Source: Roseiarcus sp. (GTDB taxonomy: Bacteria > Pseudomonadota > Alphaproteobacteria > Rhizobiales > Beijerinckiaceae). Taken from it: DNA of 64,000 nt. Positions 2,910 to 58,600 of the stretch are shown here, piece after piece; the stretch's first letter is position 1; the number at the start of each line of letters is the position of its first letter. The translations under genes were made by a program, and so were the position numbers. Under the pieces are notes generated by a model. The model was not told the DNA's origin and did no database searches. It saw nothing but the letters and a program-made list of their open reading frames with translations. The DNA is taken from positions 1,316-65,315 of the forward strand of contig NZ_JBEKVH010000012.1 of NCBI RefSeq assembly GCF_049514155.1, given 5' to 3'.

Positions 2910-3386
2910 ATGAGATTTCGCAGCCTGACGATCGCGATCGCCGCCGTTGTCCTTCCGGCGCTAGCGGCGCCGTTCCCTGCCGAAGCCGCGGTGAAGATCG
3001 GCGCGTTGCGTTGCGACGTTTCCGGCGGGCTCGGCCTGATCATCACTTCTTCGAAAGAGATGCGCTGCTTCTTCAGTTCCGCCCACGGCTATCGCGAGTG
3101 GTATTACGGCACGATCCGCAAGTTCGGCCTCGATCTCGGCGCGACCAGCCGCGGCGTGCTTGCCTGGGCGGTGTTCGCGCCGACCGCCGGGGCGCGGCGC
3201 GGCGCGCTCGCCGGCGACTATGTCGGCGCCGACGCGTCGGTGGCGGTGGGGGCGGGGGTCGGCGCCAACGCGCTGGTCGGCGGCTTCGATCGCTCGTTCA
3301 CCCTCCAGCCGCTTTCGGTCGAGGTGCAATCGGGCGTCGCGCTCGCCGCCGGCGTTGCGTCGCTGTCGCTGCGGACCGCACCCTGA
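2910..3386 (+). CDS. DUF992 family exported protein
   Basis: Internal ATG at 2910 preceded by GAGGAG. Signal peptide MRFRSLTIAIAAVVLPALAAPFPAEA, then GALRCDVSGGLGLIITSSKEMRCFF...EWYYGTIRKFGLDLG, which matches the DUF992 pattern. The upstream part of the track ORF (2787-) looks non-coding. Confidence 0.75.
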   Translation: MRFRSLTIAIAAVVLPALAAPFPAEAAVKIGALRCDVSGGLGLIITSSKEMRCFFSSAHGYREWYYGTIRKFGLDLGATSRGVLAWAVFAPTAGARRGALAGDYVGADASVAVGAGVGANALVGGFDRSFTLQPLSVEVQSGVALAAGVASLSLRTAP

Positions 3387-3407
3387 GGCGAGCCGCAACG
3401 ATCCGCG

Positions 3408-3755
3408 TCAGGCCGTGACGGCGCCGCCGCGCGCCCGCCAGCCATTCATGCCGCCTGGATAGTGTCGGACGTGGGTCGCGCCGGCGGCGTGCGCCTGGCG
3501 CAACGCCGCGCCCGAGCGCGCGCCCGCCTGGCAGATCAGCACCGGCGGCTTGCCGGCCGGAATCTGATCGGGTTTGAATCGCGATAACGGCAAATTGATC
3601 GCGCCTGGGATATGGCCGCCGGCGAATTCGTGCGGCTCGCGCACGTCGACGACGGTCACGCCGCCCTCGCTGACCGCCTTCTGCAACTCGTCATGGCCGA
3701 CGTCGCGCGGCGACGCGTTCGGATCGGACTTGCCGAATAGACTGGAGAAGATCAT
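3408..3755 (-). CDS. single-domain rhodanese (sulfurtransferase)
   Basis: 115 aa. VVDVREPHEFAGGHIPGAINLP and the active-site loop ICQAGARSG (Cys-X5-type rhodanese loop). Starts 6 nt after the upstream CMD gene stop. Confidence 0.85.
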   Translation of the reverse strand: MIFSSLFGKSDPNASPRDVGHDELQKAVSEGGVTVVDVREPHEFAGGHIPGAINLPLSRFKPDQIPAGKPPVLICQAGARSGAALRQAHAAGATHVRHYPGGMNGWRARGGAVTA

Positions 3756-3761
3756 CGCAGG

Positions 3762-4133
3762 TCATCCACGGTTGGCCGAAGCGGCTTTGGCCGCCTCGAA
3801 CTGGGTGAAGGCGCCGAGGGCGTGGCTCGCGTACATGGCGGAAGGTCCAGCCCCCATGTAGATCGCCATGCCGAGGGTTTCGAGGACTTCGTCGCGCGTC
3901 GCGCCCTGTTCGACCGCCGCCTTGGTGTGGAATGCGACGCAATCGTCGCAGCGGGTCGCCACGGCGATCGCCAGAGCGATGAGCTCCTTGGTCTTGACGT
4001 CGAGCGCCCTGGGGGTGAGCGCGGCCTGGGCGATCGTTGAAAACGCCTTCATCACGTCGCTCGCGCCGGCGCGCAAATTCTTGAGTTCGGCGCTGAGCTC
4101 CTGCGCCGTCTCCGGCCAATCGGTCTTGCCCAT
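3762..4133 (-). CDS. carboxymuconolactone decarboxylase (AhpD-like) family protein with CxxC
   Basis: ATG at 4133 preceded by AAGGAG. 123 aa containing the AhpD-core motif RCDDCVAFH (CxxCxxxH). The longer track ORF (to 4688) overlaps the RND gene and is Arg-rich junk upstream of this ATG. Confidence 0.85.
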   Translation of the reverse strand: MGKTDWPETAQELSAELKNLRAGASDVMKAFSTIAQAALTPRALDVKTKELIALAIAVATRCDDCVAFHTKAAVEQGATRDEVLETLGMAIYMGAGPSAMYASHALGAFTQFEAAKAASANRG

Positions 4134-4156
4134 GGGGTTACTCCTTTGCTTTCGAG

Positions 4157-7100
4157 TCACGAAGAGGTCGGGGCGGGGCGCTCGTCGTCGCGCAGCCAGA
4201 CGTAGATCGCCGGAATGACCAGCAGGGTCAGCGCGGTCGACGAAGCGAGTCCGAACACCAGCGAAATCGCCAGGCCCTGGAAGATCGGGTCGGCGAGGAT
4301 GAAGGCCGAGCCGATCATCGCCGCCGCAGCGGTGAGCACGATCGGCTTGACCCGCGCCGCGCCAGCGTCGATCAGCGCTGCGCGCAGCTCGGCGCCTTCG
4401 GCGCGCCGGCGACGAATAAAGTCGACCAGCAGGATCGAGTTGCGCACAATGATGCCGGCGAGCGCGATGAAGCCAATCATCGAGGTCGCGGTGAATGCGG
4501 CGCCGAGCCACCAATGGCCGAGCAAGATGCCGATCAGCGTCAGCGGCACCGGCGTCAGGATCACCAGCGGCAGCTTGAATGAACCGAATTGCGCGACGAC
4601 CAGCAGATAAATGCCGAGGATCGCCACCATGAACGCCGCGCCCATGTCGCGGAAGGTCACATAAGTGACCTCCCATTCGCCATCCCACAGCAGGGTCGGC
4701 GCGGCGTCGTTTTCCGGTTGGCCGTGATAGCGGATCGCCGGCGCGCCGTCCTTGCCCCAGTCCTGCCTCGCCATTTCGCCTTCGATCGCCAGCATGGCGT
4801 AGATCGGCGCCTCGAAGCGGCCGGCGACATCGGCCGTCACCATCTCGGCGAAGCGTCCGTTGTGGCGGAAGATCGGATAGGAGGCGGGCTCGCGCGTCAG
4901 CCTGACGACGTCGCCGAGCTCGACGTTGGCGCCTTGGCGAACTGTGCCGCCCGCCGGCAGCGGGGTCGACAGGATGCGCTCGTCGGGCGTGCGCGCCGAG
5001 AGGGGTAGGGCGACGGAGATGTCGATCGGCTTGAGTCCGTCGCCGCGCTGCGAAAAGCCGATCGGCGCGCCGCCGAGCAAGCCGGCGATGGTGTCGTAGA
5101 CCGCCTGTTCCTCGACGCCGTGAAACTCGAGCGCCTCCTGATCGATCGAGATGCGCAGGCGTTCGGCCGGCTTGGGAAAACTGTCGTCGACGTCGACGAC
5201 GAAGTCGACCGCCGCGAAGGCCTTTCGCACTTTCGCCGCGATCGTGCGACGGCTCGCCGCGTCGGGGCCATAGATCTCGGCGAGCACCGTGGCGAGCACC
5301 GGCGGACCGGGCGGGACCTCGACCACTTTGAGGGCCGTGCCGGCGGGCAGCGGCAGGTCGGCGAGGCGGCGCCGAATGTCGAGGGCGATGGCGTGGCTCG
5401 CGCGCCTGCGCATCCCTTTGTCGACCAGATTAACGGCGAGATCGCCCTGCTGCGGTTCGTCGCGCAGGTAGTAATGGCGCACCAGGCCGTTGAAGTTGAA
5501 CGGCGCCGCCGCGCCGACGTAGGCTTGGATCGAGGTCAGCTCCGGGAGGTTCTTGAGCCGCTCGGCGGCGGCCATCAGCGCGCGGTCGGTCTCCTCCAGC
5601 GCCGTTCCTTGCGGCAGGTCGAGCACGACCTGGATTTCCGACTTGTTGTCGAACGGCAGTAGCTTGACTCGCACGTTCTCGGTGGCGAACAGCGCGCAGG
5701 CAGCGACGGTCGCGAGGCCGACAGCCAGCAGGAAGACTTGCGAGCGGCGTCGGCCGCGCAAGAGGGGAGTGGCGACCCTCGAATAGAGCCGGCCGAGCGC
5801 GCCGATGTCGTGCGCATGGCCCTCGCTGTGTTCGATCTTGCCGGCGTGACGGCCGGCGATGTGCAGTAGCAGCCACGGCGTGACTGTGACCGCGACGCCG
5901 AACGAGAACAGCATCGCGATCGAGGCGTTGGCCGGGATCGGGCTCATGTAGGGGCCCATCATGCCGCTGACGAACATCATCGGCAGCAGCGCGGCGACGA
6001 TCGTCAAGGTCGCGATGACGGTCGGATTGCCGACTTCGGCGACGGCCTCGACCGCAGTCTCGACCAAGCCGCGCTCGCCGCGCATCGACCAATGCCGGGC
6101 GATGTTCTCGACCACCACGATCGCGTCGTCGACGAGAATGCCGATCGAAAAGATCAGTGCGAACAGGCTGACGCGGTTGATCGTGTAGCCCATCAGCCAC
6201 GAGGCGAACATCGTCATTAGGATGGTGGTGGGGATGACGATGAACACCACCACGCCTTCGCGCCAGCCGATGGCGAAGGCGATCAGGGCGACAATCGACA
6301 GCGTGGCGAGGCCGAGATGGAACAGCAATTCGTTGGCCTTCTCGGTCGCGGTCGCGCCGTAGTTGCGCGTGACCGTGACTTCGAGACCTGGCGGAATGAT
6401 GCGGCCCTTGACGATCTCGAGGCGATGCAGCGCGTCGTCGGCCACCGCGACAGCATTGGCGCCTTTTCGCTTGGCGATCGCGAGCGTGACGGCTGGTCTG
6501 CGCTGAAGATCGCCGTTGTCGAGCTTGGTCATCGTCCAAGCGCGATGATCCGGCTCGGCGGCGCCGACCACGACATTGGCGACGTCCTTGACGTAGACGG
6601 GTCGGCCGTCGCGCGTGGTCAGCAGCAGCAAGCCGATGTCGGGCACGCCCTGCAAGGTCTGGCCGACGACGACGGGCAGCGAGCGGCCGTCCTCGCGCAG
6701 CGCGCCGACGACGAACGAGCGGTTGGCGTTGGCGAGCTTGTCGACCAGCTGGTTGAGCGTGACGCCGTAGAGCGCGAGCCGCTCGGGGTCGGGCTCGACG
6801 CGGATCTGGTTGCGGCTGCCGCCGACGATGTAGGTTCCGCCGACGTTGTCGACTTTGGCGAGTTCGTGCTGCAGCTCGTCGGCGACCTGATAGAGGCCGT
6901 TATCGGTCCATTGGCCGGCGTGGGCGGGGTCCGCCGACAGCGTCAGGTCGACGATGGCGACGTCGTTGACGCCGCGACCGACAATCACCGGCTCGGGGAT
7001 TCCCTTGGGCAGCGCGACGATGTTGGCGCGGATCTTCTCGTGGATGCGCAGGAGCGCGACGTCTTCGTCGGTCCCGACCAGGAAGCGCGCGGTGACGACG

Positions 7101-7381
7101 ACCTTATCGTCCTGGGTCTGCGAATAGACGTGCTCGACGCCGTCGATGCCCTTGACGATGTCCTCGAGCGGTCGGGTGACGAGCTCGACCGCATCTGCGG
7201 CCTTGTAGCCGTTGGTCGTCACCATGATGTCGACCATCGGCACGCTGATCTGCGGCTCTTCCTCGCGCGGCAGCGAAACGAGGGCGAGGGCGCCGGCGGC
7301 GAGCGCCGCCAGCAGCAGCAGCGGCGTCAGCGGCGAATTGATGAAGACGCGGGTCAGCGCGCCAGAGATGCCGAGCTTCAT
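4157..7381 (-). CDS. RND efflux transporter permease subunit (AcrB/HAE-like)
   Basis: 1074 aa with a 12-TM/two-large-loop architecture. TM4 proton-relay motif GILVDDAIVVVEN. Its start overlaps the adaptor stop (ATGA). Confidence 0.95.
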   Translation of the reverse strand: MKLGISGALTRVFINSPLTPLLLLAALAAGALALVSLPREEEPQISVPMVDIMVTTNGYKAADAVELVTRPLEDIVKGIDGVEHVYSQTQDDKVVVTARFLVGTDEDVALLRIHEKIRANIVALPKGIPEPVIVGRGVNDVAIVDLTLSADPAHAGQWTDNGLYQVADELQHELAKVDNVGGTYIVGGSRNQIRVEPDPERLALYGVTLNQLVDKLANANRSFVVGALREDGRSLPVVVGQTLQGVPDIGLLLLTTRDGRPVYVKDVANVVVGAAEPDHRAWTMTKLDNGDLQRRPAVTLAIAKRKGANAVAVADDALHRLEIVKGRIIPPGLEVTVTRNYGATATEKANELLFHLGLATLSIVALIAFAIGWREGVVVFIVIPTTILMTMFASWLMGYTINRVSLFALIFSIGILVDDAIVVVENIARHWSMRGERGLVETAVEAVAEVGNPTVIATLTIVAALLPMMFVSGMMGPYMSPIPANASIAMLFSFGVAVTVTPWLLLHIAGRHAGKIEHSEGHAHDIGALGRLYSRVATPLLRGRRRSQVFLLAVGLATVAACALFATENVRVKLLPFDNKSEIQVVLDLPQGTALEETDRALMAAAERLKNLPELTSIQAYVGAAAPFNFNGLVRHYYLRDEPQQGDLAVNLVDKGMRRRASHAIALDIRRRLADLPLPAGTALKVVEVPPGPPVLATVLAEIYGPDAASRRTIAAKVRKAFAAVDFVVDVDDSFPKPAERLRISIDQEALEFHGVEEQAVYDTIAGLLGGAPIGFSQRGDGLKPIDISVALPLSARTPDERILSTPLPAGGTVRQGANVELGDVVRLTREPASYPIFRHNGRFAEMVTADVAGRFEAPIYAMLAIEGEMARQDWGKDGAPAIRYHGQPENDAAPTLLWDGEWEVTYVTFRDMGAAFMVAILGIYLLVVAQFGSFKLPLVILTPVPLTLIGILLGHWWLGAAFTATSMIGFIALAGIIVRNSILLVDFIRRRRAEGAELRAALIDAGAARVKPIVLTAAAAMIGSAFILADPIFQGLAISLVFGLASSTALTLLVIPAIYVWLRDDERPAPTSS

Positions 7382-8343
7382 GGCGCGACCAGCGCGTCGC
7401 CGTCGGCGAGGCCGGCGAGAATCTCGATCGCGTCGCCGTGGCGCTCGCCGGGCTGGACGACGACCTCGGACCCGTCCGCGGTCTTGACGTAGTTGACCCC
7501 GGCGCGGCGGAAGACGAAGGCGGCGGGCACGACAATGACGCGCCGCGCCCCGGCCGAGACCCAGGCCAGCGTGCGTTCGCCGACGAAATAGTCACCGAGG
7601 CCGGGCACTTCGACGTCGGCGATGACGCGGCCGCCCTGAATCTCGGGGTACACGGTCGTCACGCGGCCTTCGCGCCGGGTTTCGTCCGTCAACTCGGTGA
7701 GGCCGCGTGAGCCGATCTGCACCTTGTCGCCGGCGCGCATGAACTGCGCATGGCGTTCAGGCAGTTGCAGGCGCAGGATGTAGCGATCCTCGGCGAGGGT
7801 GGCGACGGTTTCGCCGGGCATGACGACGCGCCCTTCTGAAACCGGTACCGAGAGAATGCGGCCGGCGCCGGGCGCGAGCACAGCGCCCTCGCTCATCTGC
7901 TGGGCGATGACGCTGCGGTCGCCGCGCATCGCGTCGAGATTGCGTTCAGCGACATCGTAGGCGGTGCGGGCGGCGTCGACCTGGACCTGCGCGCTGACGC
8001 CCTTGCGCAGCAATTCGTCAACGCGGTCGAGATCCGTCTTGGCCTTGTCGACCTGCGCCTGCTGCGATTCAATGCGGGCGTCGAGCGCCTGCATCTGCAG
8101 CACGAGCTTGGGGTCGGCGACGGTCGCGAGTTCCGCGCCGGCCTCGGCGCGTTCGCCCTCTTTTGCCTTGAGCGAGACGATCGTGCCGCCGAGCCGCGCA
8201 CGGGCGACGAGCTGATGGACGGGCTCGACGGTGGCGACGACCGCCTTCTGATCCTGGACCTCGACCGCATGGACGACGATTCGATCCGCCGCAAAAGCGG
8301 CCTGAGGCAAGGCGATGGCGGCGATCAGCAACAGGCGGCGCAT
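7378..8343 (-). CDS. RND efflux periplasmic adaptor (MFP/HlyD family)
   Basis: ATG at 8343 preceded by GGAGGGGAG. Signal peptide MRRLLLIAAIALPQAAFA, coiled-coil hairpin region and C-terminal beta-barrel-like region typical of membrane fusion proteins. The GTG at 8370 in the track would sit inside the promoter. Confidence 0.9.
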   Translation of the reverse strand: MRRLLLIAAIALPQAAFAADRIVVHAVEVQDQKAVVATVEPVHQLVARARLGGTIVSLKAKEGERAEAGAELATVADPKLVLQMQALDARIESQQAQVDKAKTDLDRVDELLRKGVSAQVQVDAARTAYDVAERNLDAMRGDRSVIAQQMSEGAVLAPGAGRILSVPVSEGRVVMPGETVATLAEDRYILRLQLPERHAQFMRAGDKVQIGSRGLTELTDETRREGRVTTVYPEIQGGRVIADVEVPGLGDYFVGERTLAWVSAGARRVIVVPAAFVFRRAGVNYVKTADGSEVVVQPGERHGDAIEILAGLADGDALVAP

Positions 8344-8363
8344 GGGCTCCCCTCCAGCGAGGC

Positions 8364-8397
8364 TTGACACATATATTCGGATATTCTAATTTAGCAA
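8364..8397. promoter_or_regulatory. overlapping divergent sigma70-like promoters sharing an AT-rich operator (arsR1 operon / RND operon)
   Basis: Plus strand: TTGACA (8364-8369), 17 nt, TAATTT (8387-8392), which puts the TSS at or next to the arsR1 ATG at 8400. Minus strand: TTGCTA (8397-8392), 16 nt, TATATG (8375-8370). Both spacers contain ATTAGAATA (minus, 8390-8382), identical to an arm of the sqr palindrome. Confidence 0.5.
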
Positions 8398-8399
8398 GC

Positions 8400-8744
8400 A
8401 TGAATTTAGAGGAGCTGGAAAGTCAGGCGGGCGCGGCGGAGGGCCTGCTCAAGGCGGTCGCCAATCGCCGCCGGCTGACGATCCTGTGTGAACTGTCGCG
8501 CGGCGAACGTTCTGTGTCGGATCTGGGCGAGGCGATCGGACTGAGCCAATCGGCGCTGTCGCAGCATCTCGCGCGGCTGCGCGCCGACCGCATCGTCGCG
8601 ACTCGGCGCGAGTCGCAGACGATCTACTATTCGCTGGAGAGCGAGCGCGTCAGGAAGCTGATCGACCTGCTCTACCAGCTCTATTGCGCGCCCGAATGCG
8701 GCGTCGAAACGAAAGCCAAAGAACAAGGAGAGGCGAAGCGATGA
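8400..8744 (+). CDS. ArsR-family regulator, two-Cys YgaV/BigR/SqrR type (paralog 1)
   Basis: 114 aa. wHTH core RRLTILCEL...LSQSALSQHLARLR. Cys30 (ILC) and Cys96 (LYCAP) are 66 residues apart, as in BigR C42/C108 and SqrR C41/C107. There is no ELCVCDL metal site. No SD upstream, so the transcript is possibly leaderless. Confidence 0.85.
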   Translation: MNLEELESQAGAAEGLLKAVANRRRLTILCELSRGERSVSDLGEAIGLSQSALSQHLARLRADRIVATRRESQTIYYSLESERVRKLIDLLYQLYCAPECGVETKAKEQGEAKR

Positions 8745-8944
8745 CGATCGACAAGGCGGTGATGGCGTTCGCGGGGACGGTGGTTCTGTTTAGCTTGGGG
8801 CTTTCGCTGTGGCTCAGCCTCTATTGGCTGCTGCTGACAGCTTTCGTCGGGCTCAATCTGCTGCAGGCCTCGTTCACCGGCTTCTGCCCGCTGGCGATTG
8901 CGCTGCGGTGCGTCGGCGTGCGGCCCGGTCAGGCGTTTCGCTGA
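8741..8944 (+). CDS. YgaP-like transmembrane domain protein (DUF2892)
   Basis: The ATG at 8741 overlaps the arsR1 stop (ATGA). 67 aa with two TM helices and the FTGFCPLAIAL motif characteristic of DUF2892, the C-terminal domain of E. coli YgaP. Confidence 0.6.
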   Translation: MTIDKAVMAFAGTVVLFSLGLSLWLSLYWLLLTAFVGLNLLQASFTGFCPLAIALRCVGVRPGQAFR

Positions 8945-8972
8945 CGCGCGGGCCGCGCAAAGGAGGTCAGTG

Positions 8973-9359
8973 ATGAACTACTATCTCTCGCGTTCGGTCG
9001 CGCTGGATTTCGAGGCGGCGGTCGCCAAGACGATCGCGGCGCTCAAGGCCGAGGGCTTCGGCGTGTTGACCGACATCGACATCGCCGCGACGCTGAAGCA
9101 GAAGCTCGGCGTCGACTTCCGCAAGTATCGCATTCTCGGCGCCTGCAATCCTCCGCTGGCGCACAAGGCGCTTTCCGCCGACGACAAGATCGGCGTGATG
9201 TTGCCGTGCAACGTCATCGTGCAGGAGAGGGCGGAAGGGGGCGCGGAACTGGCAGCGATCGATCCGCGCGCGGCGATGCAGCGGGTCGGCAACCCGGCGC
9301 TCTCGGCGGTCGCCGAAGAAGTCGCTGAGCGACTGTCGCGCGCGCTGCAAGCGGTCTGA
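8973..9359 (+). CDS. DUF302 domain protein
   Basis: ATG at 8973 preceded by AAAGGAGG. FGVLTDIDIAATLKQKLG...YRILGACNPPLAHKAL...IGVMLPCNVIV fits the DUF302 pattern. Confidence 0.8.
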   Translation: MNYYLSRSVALDFEAAVAKTIAALKAEGFGVLTDIDIAATLKQKLGVDFRKYRILGACNPPLAHKALSADDKIGVMLPCNVIVQERAEGGAELAAIDPRAAMQRVGNPALSAVAEEVAERLSRALQAV

Positions 9360-9371
9360 TCGACCTGCGCA

Positions 9372-9399
9372 GGCCGACGAAATCCTTGGGTCGGCTTTT
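9372..9399 (+). terminator. Rho-independent terminator of the arsR1-DUF2892-DUF302 operon
   Basis: GCCGAC (9373-9378), an 11-nt loop, GTCGGC (9390-9395), followed directly by TTTT (9396-9399). Lies 13 nt after the DUF302 stop. Confidence 0.55.
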
Positions 9400-9485
9400 G
9401 GCGGCGCTCGTTTGCGTGTAATGAGGACCCAGGCGCGAAAAGCGCGCCCGCCGCGGCTGCGCCGCGGTCTCGCACGGGAGCGATC

Positions 9486-9866
9486 ATGGACAAGCGCGTC
9501 GCAGCTAAGGCGCAGGTCGCGCCCGGCGGAGCGCGCTTGGCGATTGATCCGACCGAACTCGGCGCTCACGCCGAAGCCGCAGCGGCGTTGTTGCGCGCGA
9601 TGAGCGGCAAGGCGCGGCTGCTGGTGCTGTGCAATCTCGTGCACGGCGAGCGTTCGGTCGGCGAGCTGCAACGCATCGTCGGCCTCAGCCAGTCGGCGCT
9701 GTCGCAGCATCTGGCGGTGCTCAGGCGCTCGAAGTTGGTCGAGACGCGCCGCGAAACGCAGACGATCTATTATCGCTTGGCCGGCGGCGCGGCTGCGGCG
9801 GTGCTCGAGACGCTGCACGGCATCTATTGCGCGCCCCCGGCGGGCGGCAAATCGCGCGGCCGCTGA
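9486..9866 (+). CDS. ArsR-family regulator, two-Cys YgaV/BigR/SqrR type (paralog 2)
   Basis: 126 aa with SD GGGAG. ARLLVLCNL...LSQSALSQHLAVLR...GIYCAPP. Cys49 and Cys115 are again 66 residues apart. Confidence 0.85.
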   Translation: MDKRVAAKAQVAPGGARLAIDPTELGAHAEAAAALLRAMSGKARLLVLCNLVHGERSVGELQRIVGLSQSALSQHLAVLRRSKLVETRRETQTIYYRLAGGAAAAVLETLHGIYCAPPAGGKSRGR

Positions 9867-12476: not shown

Positions 12477-12500
12477 ATTAGAATAACATGATATTCTAAT
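12477..12500. promoter_or_regulatory. perfect 9-6-9 inverted repeat ATTAGAATA-acatga-TATTCTAAT, candidate ArsR/SqrR-type operator in the sqr / trpD-like-cysG divergent region
   Basis: Read directly from the sequence as an AT-rich island in GC-rich DNA. It overlaps a plausible sqr promoter: TTAGAA (12478-12483), 16 nt, TATATG (12500-12505). The minus-strand 11-mer TATTCTAATTT (12485-12475) is identical to plus-strand 8382-8392 at the arsR1 promoter. Confidence 0.6.
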
Positions 12501-12556
12501 ATATGCAGCAGGCCGACCATGGCCGCGCGAGACGGGGAAACGCAGGAGAGGGAAAG

Positions 12557-13840
12557 GTGGCTGAAATCGTCATCATGGGCGCCGGACTTGGCGGCGCCGT
12601 CATGGCCTACGAAATGAAGGACCAGATGCGGCCGCAGGACAAGCTGACGGTCGTCACCAAGGACCCGATCTATCATTTCGTCCCGTCGAACCCGTGGGTC
12701 GCGGTCGGTTGGCGTTCTCGCCAGGCGGTCGAGGTCGACCTCGCCCCGACGCTGGCCAAGCGCGGGATCACCTTCAAGCCGGTGCCGGTGGTCAAGGTGT
12801 TTCCCAACGAGAACCGCCTGGAGCTCGCCGACGGTTCGGCGATCCGTTACGACTACCTCGTCATCGCTACCGGTCCCGAGCTCGCCTTTGACGAGATCGA
12901 GGGCCTCGGTCCCGACGCCAACACCTCGTCGATCTGCCACATCGACCACGCGTTGAAGGCCGGCGTCAGCTTCGAGGAGTTCTGCAAGAATCCCGGCCCG
13001 ATCGTCACCGGCGCGGTGCAGGGCGCCTCGTGCTTCGGCCCCGCCTACGAGTTCACCTTCATCCTCGAGACCGAACTCAGGCGTCGCCGCATTCGCGACC
13101 GCGTGCCGATGACCTTTGTCACCGCCGAGCCGTATATCGGCCATCTCGGTCTCGATGGCGTCGGCGACACCAAGGGCCTGCTCGAGAGCGAAATGCGCGA
13201 GCACCACATCAAGTGGATCACCAGCGCGCGGGTGAAAAAGGTCGAGCCGGGCAAGATGACGATCGAGGAAGTCGCCGACGACGGCTCGGTCAAGGCGACG
13301 CGCGAGTTGCCGTTCGCCTATTCGATGATGCTGCCCGCCTTCCGCGGCATCGCGCCGCTGCGCGGGATCGACGGCCTCGTCAATCCGCGCGGCTTCGTCG
13401 TCGTCGACAAGCACCAGCAGAACCCGAAATATCCGAATGTCTTCGGCGTCGGCGTGTGCGTCGCGATTGCGCCGGTCGGACCGACGCCGGTGCCATGCGG
13501 CGTGCCGAAGACGGGCTTCATGATCGAGTCGATGGTCACCGCGACCGCGCTCAACATCGGCCAGATGCTGCGCGGCGAGAAGCCGACCCACCAGGGGACC
13601 TGGAATGCCGTCTGCCTCGCCGACTTCGGCGATTCCGGCGTCGCCTTCGTCGCCCAGCCGCAAATCCCGCCGCGCAACGTCAACTGGTCGTCGTCGGGCC
13701 GGTGGGTGCACGCGGCCAAGCTGGGTTTCGAGAAGTATTTCCTGCGCAAGATGCGCAAAGGCGCGAGCGAGCCCTTCTACGAGTCGGCAGCGTTGAAGAT
13801 GCTCGGTATCGACAAGCTGAAGACGGTGACGACCGACTGA
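12557..13840 (+). CDS. sqr: sulfide:quinone oxidoreductase, type I
   Basis: GTG at 12557 preceded by GGAGAGGGAAAG. FAD fold IVIMGAGLGGA. Three Cys in SQR-typical contexts: SSICHIDH, GASCFGPAYEF and WNAVCLADFG (about positions 127/159/353, against 128/160/356 in the A. ferrooxidans enzyme). Confidence 0.9.
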   Translation: MAEIVIMGAGLGGAVMAYEMKDQMRPQDKLTVVTKDPIYHFVPSNPWVAVGWRSRQAVEVDLAPTLAKRGITFKPVPVVKVFPNENRLELADGSAIRYDYLVIATGPELAFDEIEGLGPDANTSSICHIDHALKAGVSFEEFCKNPGPIVTGAVQGASCFGPAYEFTFILETELRRRRIRDRVPMTFVTAEPYIGHLGLDGVGDTKGLLESEMREHHIKWITSARVKKVEPGKMTIEEVADDGSVKATRELPFAYSMMLPAFRGIAPLRGIDGLVNPRGFVVVDKHQQNPKYPNVFGVGVCVAIAPVGPTPVPCGVPKTGFMIESMVTATALNIGQMLRGEKPTHQGTWNAVCLADFGDSGVAFVAQPQIPPRNVNWSSSGRWVHAAKLGFEKYFLRKMRKGASEPFYESAALKMLGIDKLKTVTTD

Positions 13841-13862: not shown

Positions 13863-14213
13863 TCACGGGCCCGCGCCGTCCTTGGGCGCGCAAAACATCT
13901 CGTGGACCGCCGCCAGCATCGTTCGGATTTCTTCGTTCGCCAGGCGATAGTGGACGGTCGCGCCGTCGCGCCGGGCGGCCACCAGATTCTCGAGCCTGAG
14001 CCGCGCCAATTGCTGCGACACGGTCGACTGCCGCTGCGACAGGAACGCCTCCAGCTCGCCGACCGATTTCTCGCCGCCGGCGAGCGCGCACAGGATCAAC
14101 AGCCGCGATTCCTGCGCCAGCGCCTTGAGGAACACGCTCGCCTCGCGCGCCTTGCCGACCATCGCATCGAGGTCGACCGGCGTTTCGAACGCGCGCGGCG
14201 GTTGGGGCTTCAT
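13863..14213 (-). CDS. ArsR-family regulator, two-Cys YgaV/BigR/SqrR type (paralog 3)
   Basis: 116 aa. SRLLILCAL...QRQSTVSQQLARLR...EMFCAPKD. Cys42 and Cys108 match BigR in both numbering and 66-residue spacing. Convergent with sqr across a 22-nt gap. Confidence 0.85.
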   Translation of the reverse strand: MKPQPPRAFETPVDLDAMVGKAREASVFLKALAQESRLLILCALAGGEKSVGELEAFLSQRQSTVSQQLARLRLENLVAARRDGATVHYRLANEEIRTMLAAVHEMFCAPKDGAGP

Positions 14214-57862: not shown

Positions 57863-58600
57863 ATGAAGCATTCTCTCTTGGCGTCTACGGCGTTGTGCGC
57901 CGCCTTCGCTTCTGGCGCTCTCGCCGCCGACCTGCCGACCATGAAGGGGCCGCCGCCGGCGCCGATGCCGGTCGTCGCCCCATTCTCGTGGACGGGTTTC
58001 TACATCGGCGGCAACATCGGCGCCGTCTTCGACCCGGACAGCGTCCAGGATCTCGGTGGTAACTGCTGCCACTTTTACAATGGCGGAACCGACACGCTCA
58101 ACCCCACGGGGGTCGTCGGCGGTTTGCAGGCGGGATACAATTATCAGATTCAGAGCTTCGTCGTCGGCGTCGAGGGCGACCTCGATGGGACGAGCGCCAG
58201 CGCCAGCAGGGGCGGGGTGCTGGGCGGCAGCGGGGCGGGGCAGCCGGTTCATTCGGCGAGCCTGCCATTCTTTGCCGACTTGCGTGCGCGGTTCGGCATC
58301 GCTTTCGATCGCTTCCTGCCCTACGTGACGGGCGGCGTCGTCTTTGCAGATCTGACGAACAAGCTCAGTGATACGGGCTACACGCCGCCGCTTCCTGTGA
58401 GCCGCGGCAGCGAGGCGACGGGGTGGACGATCGGCGGCGGCGTGGAATACGCGATCGACAATCACTGGTCGGTCAAGGCCGAGTACCTCTATATGCAGTT
58501 TCCGGACGTGACGAAGAGCGTCACGGACGGCGCCACATACGCCTTCAAGTTCAAGGACTCCGCCCAGCTCGCCCGCGTCGGCCTCAACTACCGGTTCTAA
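57863..58600 (+). CDS. outer-membrane beta-barrel protein (Omp25/RopB/porin family 31)
   Basis: Signal peptide MKHSLLASTALCAAFASGALA, FSWTGFYIGGNIG, and a C-terminal ARVGLNYRF ending in Phe. Confidence 0.85.
   Translation: MKHSLLASTALCAAFASGALAADLPTMKGPPPAPMPVVAPFSWTGFYIGGNIGAVFDPDSVQDLGGNCCHFYNGGTDTLNPTGVVGGLQAGYNYQIQSFVVGVEGDLDGTSASASRGGVLGGSGAGQPVHSASLPFFADLRARFGIAFDRFLPYVTGGVVFADLTNKLSDTGYTPPLPVSRGSEATGWTIGGGVEYAIDNHWSVKAEYLYMQFPDVTKSVTDGATYAFKFKDSAQLARVGLNYRF

Follow-up and report, generated by a model that had tools for sequence, protein, structure and literature searches.

An RND efflux operon with a CxxC protein and a rhodanese beside a HlyU-like ArsR gene in Roseiarcus sp.: a candidate reactive-sulfur-inducible locus

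The window analyzed here, a 64-kb stretch of the Roseiarcus sp. contig NZ_JBEKVH010000012.1 (~68% G+C), carries on its minus strand four tightly packed genes for a membrane fusion protein (MFP) adaptor, a resistance-nodulation-division (RND) permease, a CMD/AhpD-like protein with a CxxC motif and a rhodanese. Their first start codon lies 56 bp from the start of a divergent gene for a two-cysteine ArsR regulator, ArsR1, as verified at positions 8343 and 8400. Every gene, motif, overlap and gap that a first-pass annotation of this DNA had listed for the four-gene cluster was found again by Pfam and NCBIfam searches and by reading of the junctions. The nearest relatives of the window come from peat and soil metagenomes, as assembled genomes of Roseiarcus and Beijerinckiaceae-like type, and one peat-type metagenome contig (L094) encodes a CMD protein identical to that of the window. 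The features of the cluster and of the operon that diverges from it are the following.

3408-3755, minus strand: rhodanese, 115 aa (PF00581, E=3e-19), with the loop CQAGARS and no signal peptide; last gene of the operon
3762-4133, minus strand: CMD/AhpD-like protein, 123 aa (PF02627, E=8e-24; TIGR00778), with the motif CDDCVAFH (CxxCxxxH) and no signal peptide
4157-7381, minus strand: RND permease, 1074 aa, matching PF00873 over its full length (residues 11-1063, E=6e-141), with the transmembrane helix 4 (TM4) motif GILVDDAIVVVEN
7378-8343, minus strand: MFP adaptor, 321 aa, with the signal peptide MRRLLLIAAIALPQAAFA, a coiled-coil hairpin and HlyD_3 and HlyD_D23 domains
8364-8408, no strand assigned: divergent promoter/operator region with a HlyU-operator-like box, an overlapping copy of it and the inferred promoters
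8400-8744, plus strand: ArsR1, a two-Cys regulator of HlyU/SqrR/BigR-like type (HTH_5, PF01022, E=2e-13), apparently leaderless
8741-8944, plus strand: YgaP-like two-helix membrane protein (DUF2892, PF11127, E=1e-9), 67 aa
8973-9359, plus strand: DUF302 protein (PF03625, E=4e-26), third gene of the divergent operon

The pump operon and its divergent promoter region

The MFP gene starts at ATG 8343, with a GGAGG ribosome-binding site ahead of the start codon. Its stop codon and the start codon of the RND gene share the sequence ATGA at 7381-7378, the RND and CMD genes are separated by 23 nt that contain AAGGAG, and 6 nt separate the CMD and rhodanese genes, so that no room is left for internal promoters. 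A scan of 3200-9600 for the sigma-70 consensus detected no promoter-like site inside the MFP-RND-CMD-rhodanese cluster, and the terminator scan returned a single weak terminator-like site (4438-4422, inside the RND gene), fewer than shuffles give. On the opposite strand, the ArsR1 stop codon overlaps the start of the DUF2892 gene in another ATGA.

The permease has the AcrB-type TM4 motif GILVDDAIVVVEN, with its DD pair, that is expected of a tripartite-pump permease. It nevertheless falls below every NCBIfam subfamily cutoff, the best score being 409.7 bits versus 1250 (RND_permease_1/2, Mdt, Acr, Mex), and its best solved relative is found at only 1.7e-64; the nearest solved relatives are multidrug HAE-1 pumps. 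In metal pumps the TM4 consensus takes the DGA form, and the permease scores 261.7 against TIGR00914 (CusA/CzcA), for which the cutoff is 701. A reading of the locus as a metal sensor with a metal pump was rejected, as the family scores are too low and no metal genes are present. The co-encoded MFP exceeds the TIGR01730 cutoff (108.5 versus 94.9 bits), and its coiled-coil hairpin is as expected for docking to an outer-membrane channel. No outer-membrane factor (PF02321) was found among the 50 window open reading frames (ORFs) scanned with Pfam, in agreement with the first-pass annotation, which had found none in the operon or the window; the lone outer-membrane protein in this set is a small beta-barrel (57863-58600). 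The outer-membrane partner may be encoded elsewhere.

The CMD protein and the rhodanese lack signal peptides and are, by sequence, both cytoplasmic. For the former, the best solved relative is the AhpD-like protein 5dik (3e-30), with the CxxC motif aligned, and CxxCxxxH is present in 119 of the 120 closest homologs. Among solved structures, the latter best matches the rhodanese domains of fusions between persulfide dioxygenase and rhodanese (3tp9, 1e-17), and YgaP (5hbl) is matched as well. The catalytic cysteine loop is kept in 23 of 26 matches from related loci, the searched pattern being missing from the other three. An Acr2/Cdc25-type arsenate reductase, which shares the rhodanese fold, was considered and rejected: the loop CQAGAR is a six-residue C-X4-R loop and not C-X5-R.

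What type of sensor stands at the head of the operon? The best solved relative of ArsR1 is Vibrio HlyU (3jth, 5e-27, 55% identity), followed by NolR, SqrR (6o8l, 2e-21), BigR and YgaV. ArsR1 scores above the cutoff of NCBIfam NF033788, as an ArsR/SmtB winged-helix protein should, and its cysteines, in ILC and LYC, align with both sensing cysteines of HlyU, which in this sensor type lie in alpha-2 (LxC) and in the C-terminal helix. Persulfides bridging the two cysteines abolish DNA binding of HlyU, SqrR and BigR (PMC10054925; 10.1101/2025.02.17.638619).

The V. cholerae operator for which HlyU binding was quantified, ATAAATTAATTCAGACTAAATTAGTTCAAA, contains the pattern TAAATT-N9-TAAATTAG (PMC10054925). 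The window has a single exact match to this pattern, at 8386-8408 on its minus strand (TAAATTCATGCTTGCTAAATTAG), against an expectation of 0.00 (none in 100 shuffles), and a two-mismatch copy at 8372-8394 on the plus strand overlaps it. Hexamers read by eye place a putative arsR1 promoter at TTGACA (8364-8369), 17 nt, TAATTT (8387-8392) and a putative pump promoter at TTGCTA (8397-8392), 16 nt, TATATG (8375-8370). The box overlaps the inferred -10/-35 elements of both divergent promoters, a position that implies repression. Since the arsR1 promoter ends 7 nt before the ATG and no Shine-Dalgarno sequence is present, the arsR1-DUF2892-DUF302 transcript is probably leaderless. The entire promoter/operator block is conserved across 14 related loci, and the HlyU pattern precedes either the MFP gene or the first gene of the operon at 17 species-level loci, among them Azospirillum and Magnetovibrio. 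We regard the box as a predicted operator of the type cognate to ArsR1, located at the promoter that it would regulate.

In two Methylocystis metagenome-assembled genomes (MAGs), L016 (~8400-8950) and L057 (~8540-8950), arsR and the pump are separated by an inserted small gene for a HiPIP-like protein with a Tat signal. In both, the operator-like box is present a second time, directly in front of the MFP gene.

Pump orthologs and CMD-rhodanese pairs across genomes

A search with three aligned pump sequences located at least 585 loci in genomes. The best 80 of these at least 585 orthologs are 61-81% identical and almost all alphaproteobacterial. Carriers include Roseiarcus, Methylocystis, Rhodoblastus, Azospirillum, Magnetovibrio, Mesorhizobium, Xanthobacter, Rhodobacter, Cereibacter and others, and the orthologs span the orders Rhodobacterales, Hyphomicrobiales and Rhodospirillales. 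Such identity across orders, set against the distance from characterized pumps, suggests that the group has one specific conserved substrate.

Neighbors were counted at the 67 species-level pump loci with enough upstream sequence. A DUF2892 gene lies within 2 kb of the pump at 44 of them, a two-Cys-type ArsR gene is nearby at 34, and a type I sulfide:quinone oxidoreductase (SQR) 56-76% identical to the one encoded in the window is nearby at 23; at least one of the three is present at 48 loci. In Mesorhizobium (for example L049) and Rhodobacter, the genes form a sqr-DUF2892-MFP-RND chain on one strand. In Azospirillum brasilense ATCC 49958 (L028), sqr and DUF2892 diverge from an MFP-RND-rhodanese set. 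Clustering of the pump neighborhoods revealed no other conserved gene and no conserved regulator of TetR/MarR type. In 13 of 74 loci, of Rhodobacterales and Mesorhizobium types, the published SqrR box, ATTC-N8-GAAT (PMC9774250), precedes the first gene of the chain by no more than 200 nt, where a background of 20 per 1.49 Mb predicts ~0.2. In Cereibacter johrii (L089), a SqrR box is placed 48 nt ahead of the MFP gene. Orthologous sqr/DUF2892/pump operons in Rhodobacterales and Mesorhizobium are thus preceded by the SqrR box, whereas the clade of the window has the HlyU-like box instead. The first-pass proposal that the operon is wired to a persulfide-sensor-type ArsR regulator gains support from all of these sequence features: a HlyU/SqrR-like protein with both cysteines, a HlyU-operator-like box over the inferred promoters, the linkage of pump orthologs to sqr, DUF2892 and two-Cys ArsR genes across Alphaproteobacteria, and the SqrR boxes in front of such operons.

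The CMD-rhodanese tail is distributed differently. It directly follows the RND gene in 6 of 69 loci and is missing from 63; all six belong to a Roseiarcus/Methylocystis-like clade whose pumps are at least 74.5% identical. In a metagenome scan anchored on the CMD gene, with 62 loci informative for the upstream gene and 66 for the downstream gene, an RND gene is directly upstream at 30 of the 62, and the remaining 32 have the CMD-rhodanese pair without the pump. The upstream RND gene tracks CMD identity, being present in 11 of 12 loci above 85%, 7 of 11 at 79-85%, 12 of 25 at 74-79% and 0 of 14 at 74% or less. Among seven distinct CMD-anchored places with long contigs, six have the order MFP-RND-CMD-rhodanese, the pump being disrupted in one of the six. 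The recurrence of this order in six species genomes, 30 of 62 contigs and six of seven places makes the arrangement more than chance. The association predicted by the first-pass annotation, CMD and rhodanese genes downstream of an RND permease, is accordingly conserved within the clade and does not extend to the pump group as a whole.

A rhodanese gene directly follows the CMD gene at 48 of the 66 metagenome loci. In several sister loci the rhodanese is followed in turn by a Trx2-type thioredoxin, which is near the pump in seven loci; the CMD-rhodanese pairs of distant lineages have no consistent neighbors beyond an occasional DUF302 gene. Neither an AhpC-type peroxiredoxin nor pca genes are among the window ORFs scanned. 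The conserved rhodanese partner, together with the Trx2-like protein of sister loci, suggests that the CMD protein serves as a persulfide or dithiol relay and not in peroxide reduction.

Are the two halves of the operon bound to each other? Four loci from peat metagenomes (L002-L005) share the nitroreductase, flavin reductase, DUF992 and cysG flanks of the window and have no pump. The 0.5-kb spacer before their CMD gene keeps the pump promoter/operator box (82% identical to 8337-8408), the first bases of the MFP gene, its start codon lost, and a piece of the DUF2892 gene. In L002, intact CMD and rhodanese genes (81% and 70% identical) adjoin an ortholog of ArsR2, the second two-Cys ArsR protein of the window; this gene, 66% identical, is divergent from the pair. 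On this sequence evidence, the L002 lineage is one that deleted MFP-RND and arsR1 and kept CMD-rhodanese under the same control region. The deletion implies that the pair is driven from the pump promoter and that its function does not depend on the pump.

Pump-less remnants are located at about 9880-10000 in L002-L005. Elsewhere, in the MAG locus L090 (2809-7004), no MFP gene is present, and the RND gene is broken into two pieces (245 and 464 aa) that flank opposite-strand ORFs without a Pfam match. With its CMD-rhodanese pair intact, L090 looks like a second, independent loss of the pump. Judged from these neighborhoods, CMD-rhodanese is a cassette separable from the pump.

ArsR paralogs, sqr and the wider sulfur island

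Further sulfur-related features lie on the far side of the divergent operon.

9486-9866, plus strand: ArsR2, second two-Cys ArsR paralog, 48% identical to ArsR1
12477-12500, no strand assigned: perfect inverted repeat ATTAGAATA-N6-TATTCTAAT, upstream of sqr
12503-13840, plus strand: type I sulfide:quinone oxidoreductase (sqr), with matches to solved structures; likelier start GTG 12557
13863-14213, minus strand: ArsR3, third two-Cys ArsR paralog, convergent with sqr

Between ArsR2 and sqr lie cysG and then a gene for a Glycos_trans_3N protein; the three ArsR paralogs, sqr and cysG are all contained within 11 kb, the paralogs themselves sitting within 6 kb around sqr, cysG and the pump. ArsR2 and ArsR3 also possess both cysteines of the persulfide-sensor clade, and the three proteins are 40-48% identical to one another. 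Against the NCBIfam BigR model (NF040642) they score 84.9-93.6 bits, with ArsR1 at 86.7, where the equivalog cutoff is 155. By these scores the ArsR proteins of the window are relatives of BigR and not its orthologs, and ArsR1 is nearest to HlyU.

The SQR matches those of A. ferrooxidans (3sz0, 2.5e-139) and Aquifex (3hyv, 6e-106) and is of type I. Two nucleotides separate the perfect 9-bp inverted repeat from ATG 12503, the earliest in-frame ATG of sqr. When aligned to solved SQRs, the ORF read from that ATG matches from residue 20 onward, and the ribosome-binding site AGGAGAG precedes GTG 12557; the true start is therefore probably GTG 12557, which puts the repeat 57-80 nt upstream. The half-site TATTCTAAT occurs three times in the 64 kb, once at 8382-8390 and twice as the arms of the repeat at 12477-12500, and the 11-mer AAATTAGAATA is common to the pump box and the repeat. 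When one mismatch is allowed in TATTCTAAT, the expectation is 0.63, and three matches are reached in 2 of 100 shuffles. The half-site that the first-pass annotation saw in both the pump intergenic region and the sqr operator is real, with three exact copies in the window; its TATT portion is not conserved among relatives. As the HlyU-like box is found only in the ArsR1/pump intergenic region and a different palindrome stands at sqr, the sequences suggest a division of labor among the three paralogs.

In the divergent operon, the cysteine of the DUF2892 motif GFCP is invariant (59/59 matches). A DUF302 gene is near the pump in 10 loci and is also present in L001, L006 and L090-L092. Just past DUF302 in L001 (3785-4425), L090 (747-1387) and L091 (933-1571) are genes for a DsrE-like protein, TusA and a second Pyr_redox_2 flavoprotein, which extend the sulfur-trafficking island in these sister loci and are not at the corresponding position of the window. 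No metallo-beta-lactamase, TauE or YeeE domain was detected in the locus or in the window ORFs scanned. With no persulfide dioxygenase (ETHE1/Blh/CstB) and no TauE/YeeE transporter, the locus is not an operon of the cst or BigR-blh type.

The rest of the window is of a housekeeping nature: tkt-gap-pgk-fba, the dcw cell-division cluster, rpsB-tsf and several MFS transporters. Two glycine-rich ORFs with apparent signal peptides, at 1662-2174 and 2345-2662 on the minus strand, lie between the flavin reductase and DUF992 genes, and neither was matched to a family.

Rival readings, precedents and significance

How might such an operon work? We lean, with moderate confidence, toward a reactive-sulfur-inducible operon whose two halves are functionally independent under one sensor. 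ArsR1, possibly together with its paralogs, would repress both divergent operons from the HlyU-like operator over their face-to-face promoters, and by analogy with SqrR and HlyU, it would come off the DNA once a persulfide or polysulfide had bridged its two cysteines. MFP-RND, with an outer-membrane channel encoded elsewhere, would then clear the periplasm or inner membrane of some hydrophobic sulfide-oxidation product; polysulfide, elemental sulfur (S8) and organic polysulfanes are candidate substrates, proposed here purely by conjecture. In the cytoplasm, the rhodanese would take up sulfane sulfur as a cysteine persulfide, and the AhpD-like CxxC protein would act as its dithiol acceptor or reductant, probably to be recycled in sister genomes by the Trx2-type thioredoxin. 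These cytoplasmic steps would lower sulfane sulfur and thereby reset the sensor.

The first-pass annotation had gone further and joined the four products in one obligate pathway, in which sulfane sulfur accepted by the rhodanese is resolved by the CxxC protein into a specific product, which then leaves the cell through the pump. The translational coupling or tight packing of all four genes speaks for such a chain, as does the MFP-RND-CMD-rhodanese order kept in 30 metagenome loci and six species genomes of the clade, with RND directly upstream in 11 of the 12 loci where CMD identity exceeds 85%. However, an obligate chain is difficult to reconcile with 63 of 69 orthologous pump loci that lack both small genes, with 32 of 62 CMD-anchored loci that have the pair and no pump, and above all with L002, which lost MFP-RND cleanly while CMD-rhodanese stayed intact under the same promoter. 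Moreover, the substrates of RND pumps normally enter from the periplasm or from the inner membrane's outer leaflet, whereas the two small proteins are cytoplasmic by sequence. Weakened by the separable cassette, the L002 deletion and the lack of signal peptides, the chain now strikes us as improbable. At the other extreme, the genes could merely be clustered in a sulfur island, with no shared regulation, a promoter of its own for CMD-rhodanese and a pump that does not respond to sulfur. Three ArsR paralogs, sqr and cysG in 11 kb could indeed bring such neighbors together by coincidence. But the ATGA overlap and the 23-nt and 6-nt gaps leave no space for a promoter, none was detected by the scan, the pump promoter/operator would directly drive CMD-rhodanese in L002 after the deletion, and the operator-like box at the pump promoter is shared between genera. 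We consider mere clustering very improbable indeed.

A further alternative accepts the reactive-sulfur control and disputes the cargo: the pump could be a general exporter of hydrophobic toxins or a stress pump, or it could export metal sulfides or thiophilic metals, in each case with no sulfur-specific substrate. The authors of the Azospira study discussed below read their sulfide-induced RND pumps as metal-sulfide exporters (PMC5358917). Several papers document sulfane-sulfur control of multidrug efflux through MarR-family (MarR/MexR-type) regulators. The AcrB-type TM4 and the multidrug HAE-1 pumps as nearest solved relatives fit a general pump as well, and 19 of the 67 pump loci have no recognizable sulfur gene nearby. 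Yet identity of 61-81% across three orders, compared with ~1e-64 to characterized pumps, suggests one substrate and not broad xenobiotics; the linkage to type I SQR and DUF2892 is specific, and no conserved drug-type regulator (TetR, MarR) is nearby. As for metals, the permease is far below the CusA/CzcA cutoff and has the AcrB-type DD pair in place of the DGA of metal pumps. We judge a pump without a sulfur-specific substrate to be rather unlikely.

Several points weigh against the sulfur-inducible operon with independent halves that we favor. In Azospira, deletion of the whole sqr-pump operon left the rate of perchlorate-dependent sulfide oxidation unchanged (PMC5358917). The 19 pump loci without sulfur neighbors count here too, and no conserved outer-membrane factor cluster was found in the neighborhoods around the orthologous pump. 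The SqrR box ATTC-N8-GAAT was searched for at the pump promoters of the window's clade and is absent. Vibrio HlyU, furthermore, is an anti-silencer/activator and not a classical repressor, and AhpD-like proteins can also be peroxidase partners.

The sulfide and persulfide stress regulons of SqrR, BigR, HlyU, CstR and FisR are an active field. To our knowledge, the described cargo of such regulons consists of enzymes (SQR, persulfide dioxygenase, rhodaneses) and inner-membrane anion transporters. Is an RND pump in this setting without precedent, as the first-pass annotation had claimed? Two studies contradict the claim. In Azospira suillum PS, Dsui_3440-3443 (an unknown protein, RND, SQR and MFP) are strongly induced by H2S (Mehta-Kolte et al. 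2017, PMC5358917); this sqr-RND-MFP operon was the single operon flagged by Bar-seq fitness, and a DUF2892 protein was induced ~tenfold (PMC5358917). There, as here, RND and MFP genes are tied to sulfide-oxidation functions, in Azospira by co-transcription with sqr. Unlike the Roseiarcus locus, the Azospira operon belongs to a betaproteobacterium and has sqr inside the pump operon, and no CMD protein, rhodanese or ArsR sensor was described with it; the two pumps are compared here by their descriptions. The second study reports two-Cys ArsR sensors encoded beside RND genes in Alphaproteobacteria (Li et al., Dahl laboratory 2025, 10.1101/2025.02.17.638619, PMC12423496), with Hyphomicrobium 1NES1, Erythrobacter NAP1, Rhodopseudomonas palustris and Tsuneonella as examples, and suggests that the pumps transport sulfur compounds (10.1101/2025.02.17.638619). 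With sensor-adjacent RND genes already catalogued and a sulfide-induced sqr-RND operon described, the claim of no precedent fails and the novelty of the locus is limited. Li et al. is a neighborhood survey and defines no operator, pump group, DUF2892 or SQR numbers, or CMD-rhodanese tail. Apart from their suggestion, our literature search turned up no published function for these pumps and no proposal of sulfur export.

The locus combines traits of several known systems. With Vibrio HlyU/hlyA it shares a regulator of 55% identity with both cysteines and a box with the same repeated core and spacing, TAAATT-N9-TAAATTAG; but HlyU activates toxin genes by counteracting silencing, and the cargo here is a pump with sulfur enzymes. 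As in the R. capsulatus SqrR regulon, in which a two-Cys ArsR repressor controls type I sqr, the locus has a single-domain rhodanese of the sort that shapes the polysulfide signal. The SqrR-regulated rhodanese of R. capsulatus (rcc01557) makes the response to sulfide shorter and has no known acceptor for its sulfur (PMC9995734). The Roseiarcus rhodanese, unlike that one, is co-encoded with a CxxC protein. No pump is described in the R. capsulatus SqrR regulon literature that was found, which does not cover the Shimizu 2017 RNA-seq. E. coli ygaVP likewise unites a YgaV-like regulator, a DUF2892 domain (PF11127) and a rhodanese with a CQAG-type loop in one locus. Whereas E. coli YgaP is a fusion, the rhodanese and the membrane domain of the window are separate and encoded on opposite strands, and the RND pump, CMD and DUF302 genes are additions. 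The CMD protein resembles the 5dik AhpD-like proteins in fold and in its CxxCxxxH active site, and differs in that its conserved partner is a rhodanese. What is new here, on the genomic evidence, is a conserved pump group linked to SQR and DUF2892 with a HlyU-type operator sequence at its promoter, and a clade-specific CMD-rhodanese(-Trx2) tail with a natural deletion by which the two halves are separable.

A bolder reading, which we hold only tentatively and think doubtful, makes the MFP-RND group a dedicated exporter of zero-valent sulfur and the rhodanese-CxxC-Trx2 set of the clade a new depersulfidation relay. Type I SQR would make hydrophobic polysulfur at the periplasmic face of the inner membrane (the R. 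capsulatus enzyme is reported as periplasmic in the title of Schutz 1999), and the pump, perhaps aided by DUF2892 with its invariant cysteine, would expel it through a TolC-like channel. The CxxC protein would in turn be the missing acceptor of SqrR-regulon rhodaneses.

Why should a pump in a soil or peat alphaproteobacterium matter to sulfide physiology? The linkage of a conserved RND group to type I SQR points to an unstudied export step in sulfide detoxification, and the route by which SQR-made zero-valent sulfur leaves the cell is not settled. The locus also nominates an AhpD-like CxxC protein, Trx2-recycled in sister genomes, as a partner of sensor-regulated rhodaneses. Because cultured carriers of the pump exist (Azospirillum brasilense, Mesorhizobium, Xanthobacter, Cereibacter, Pannonibacter), the hypothesis is open to genetics. 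If the exporter reading were true, it would account for the ability of SQR-dependent alphaproteobacteria to deposit sulfur extracellularly while keeping their membranes from being poisoned.

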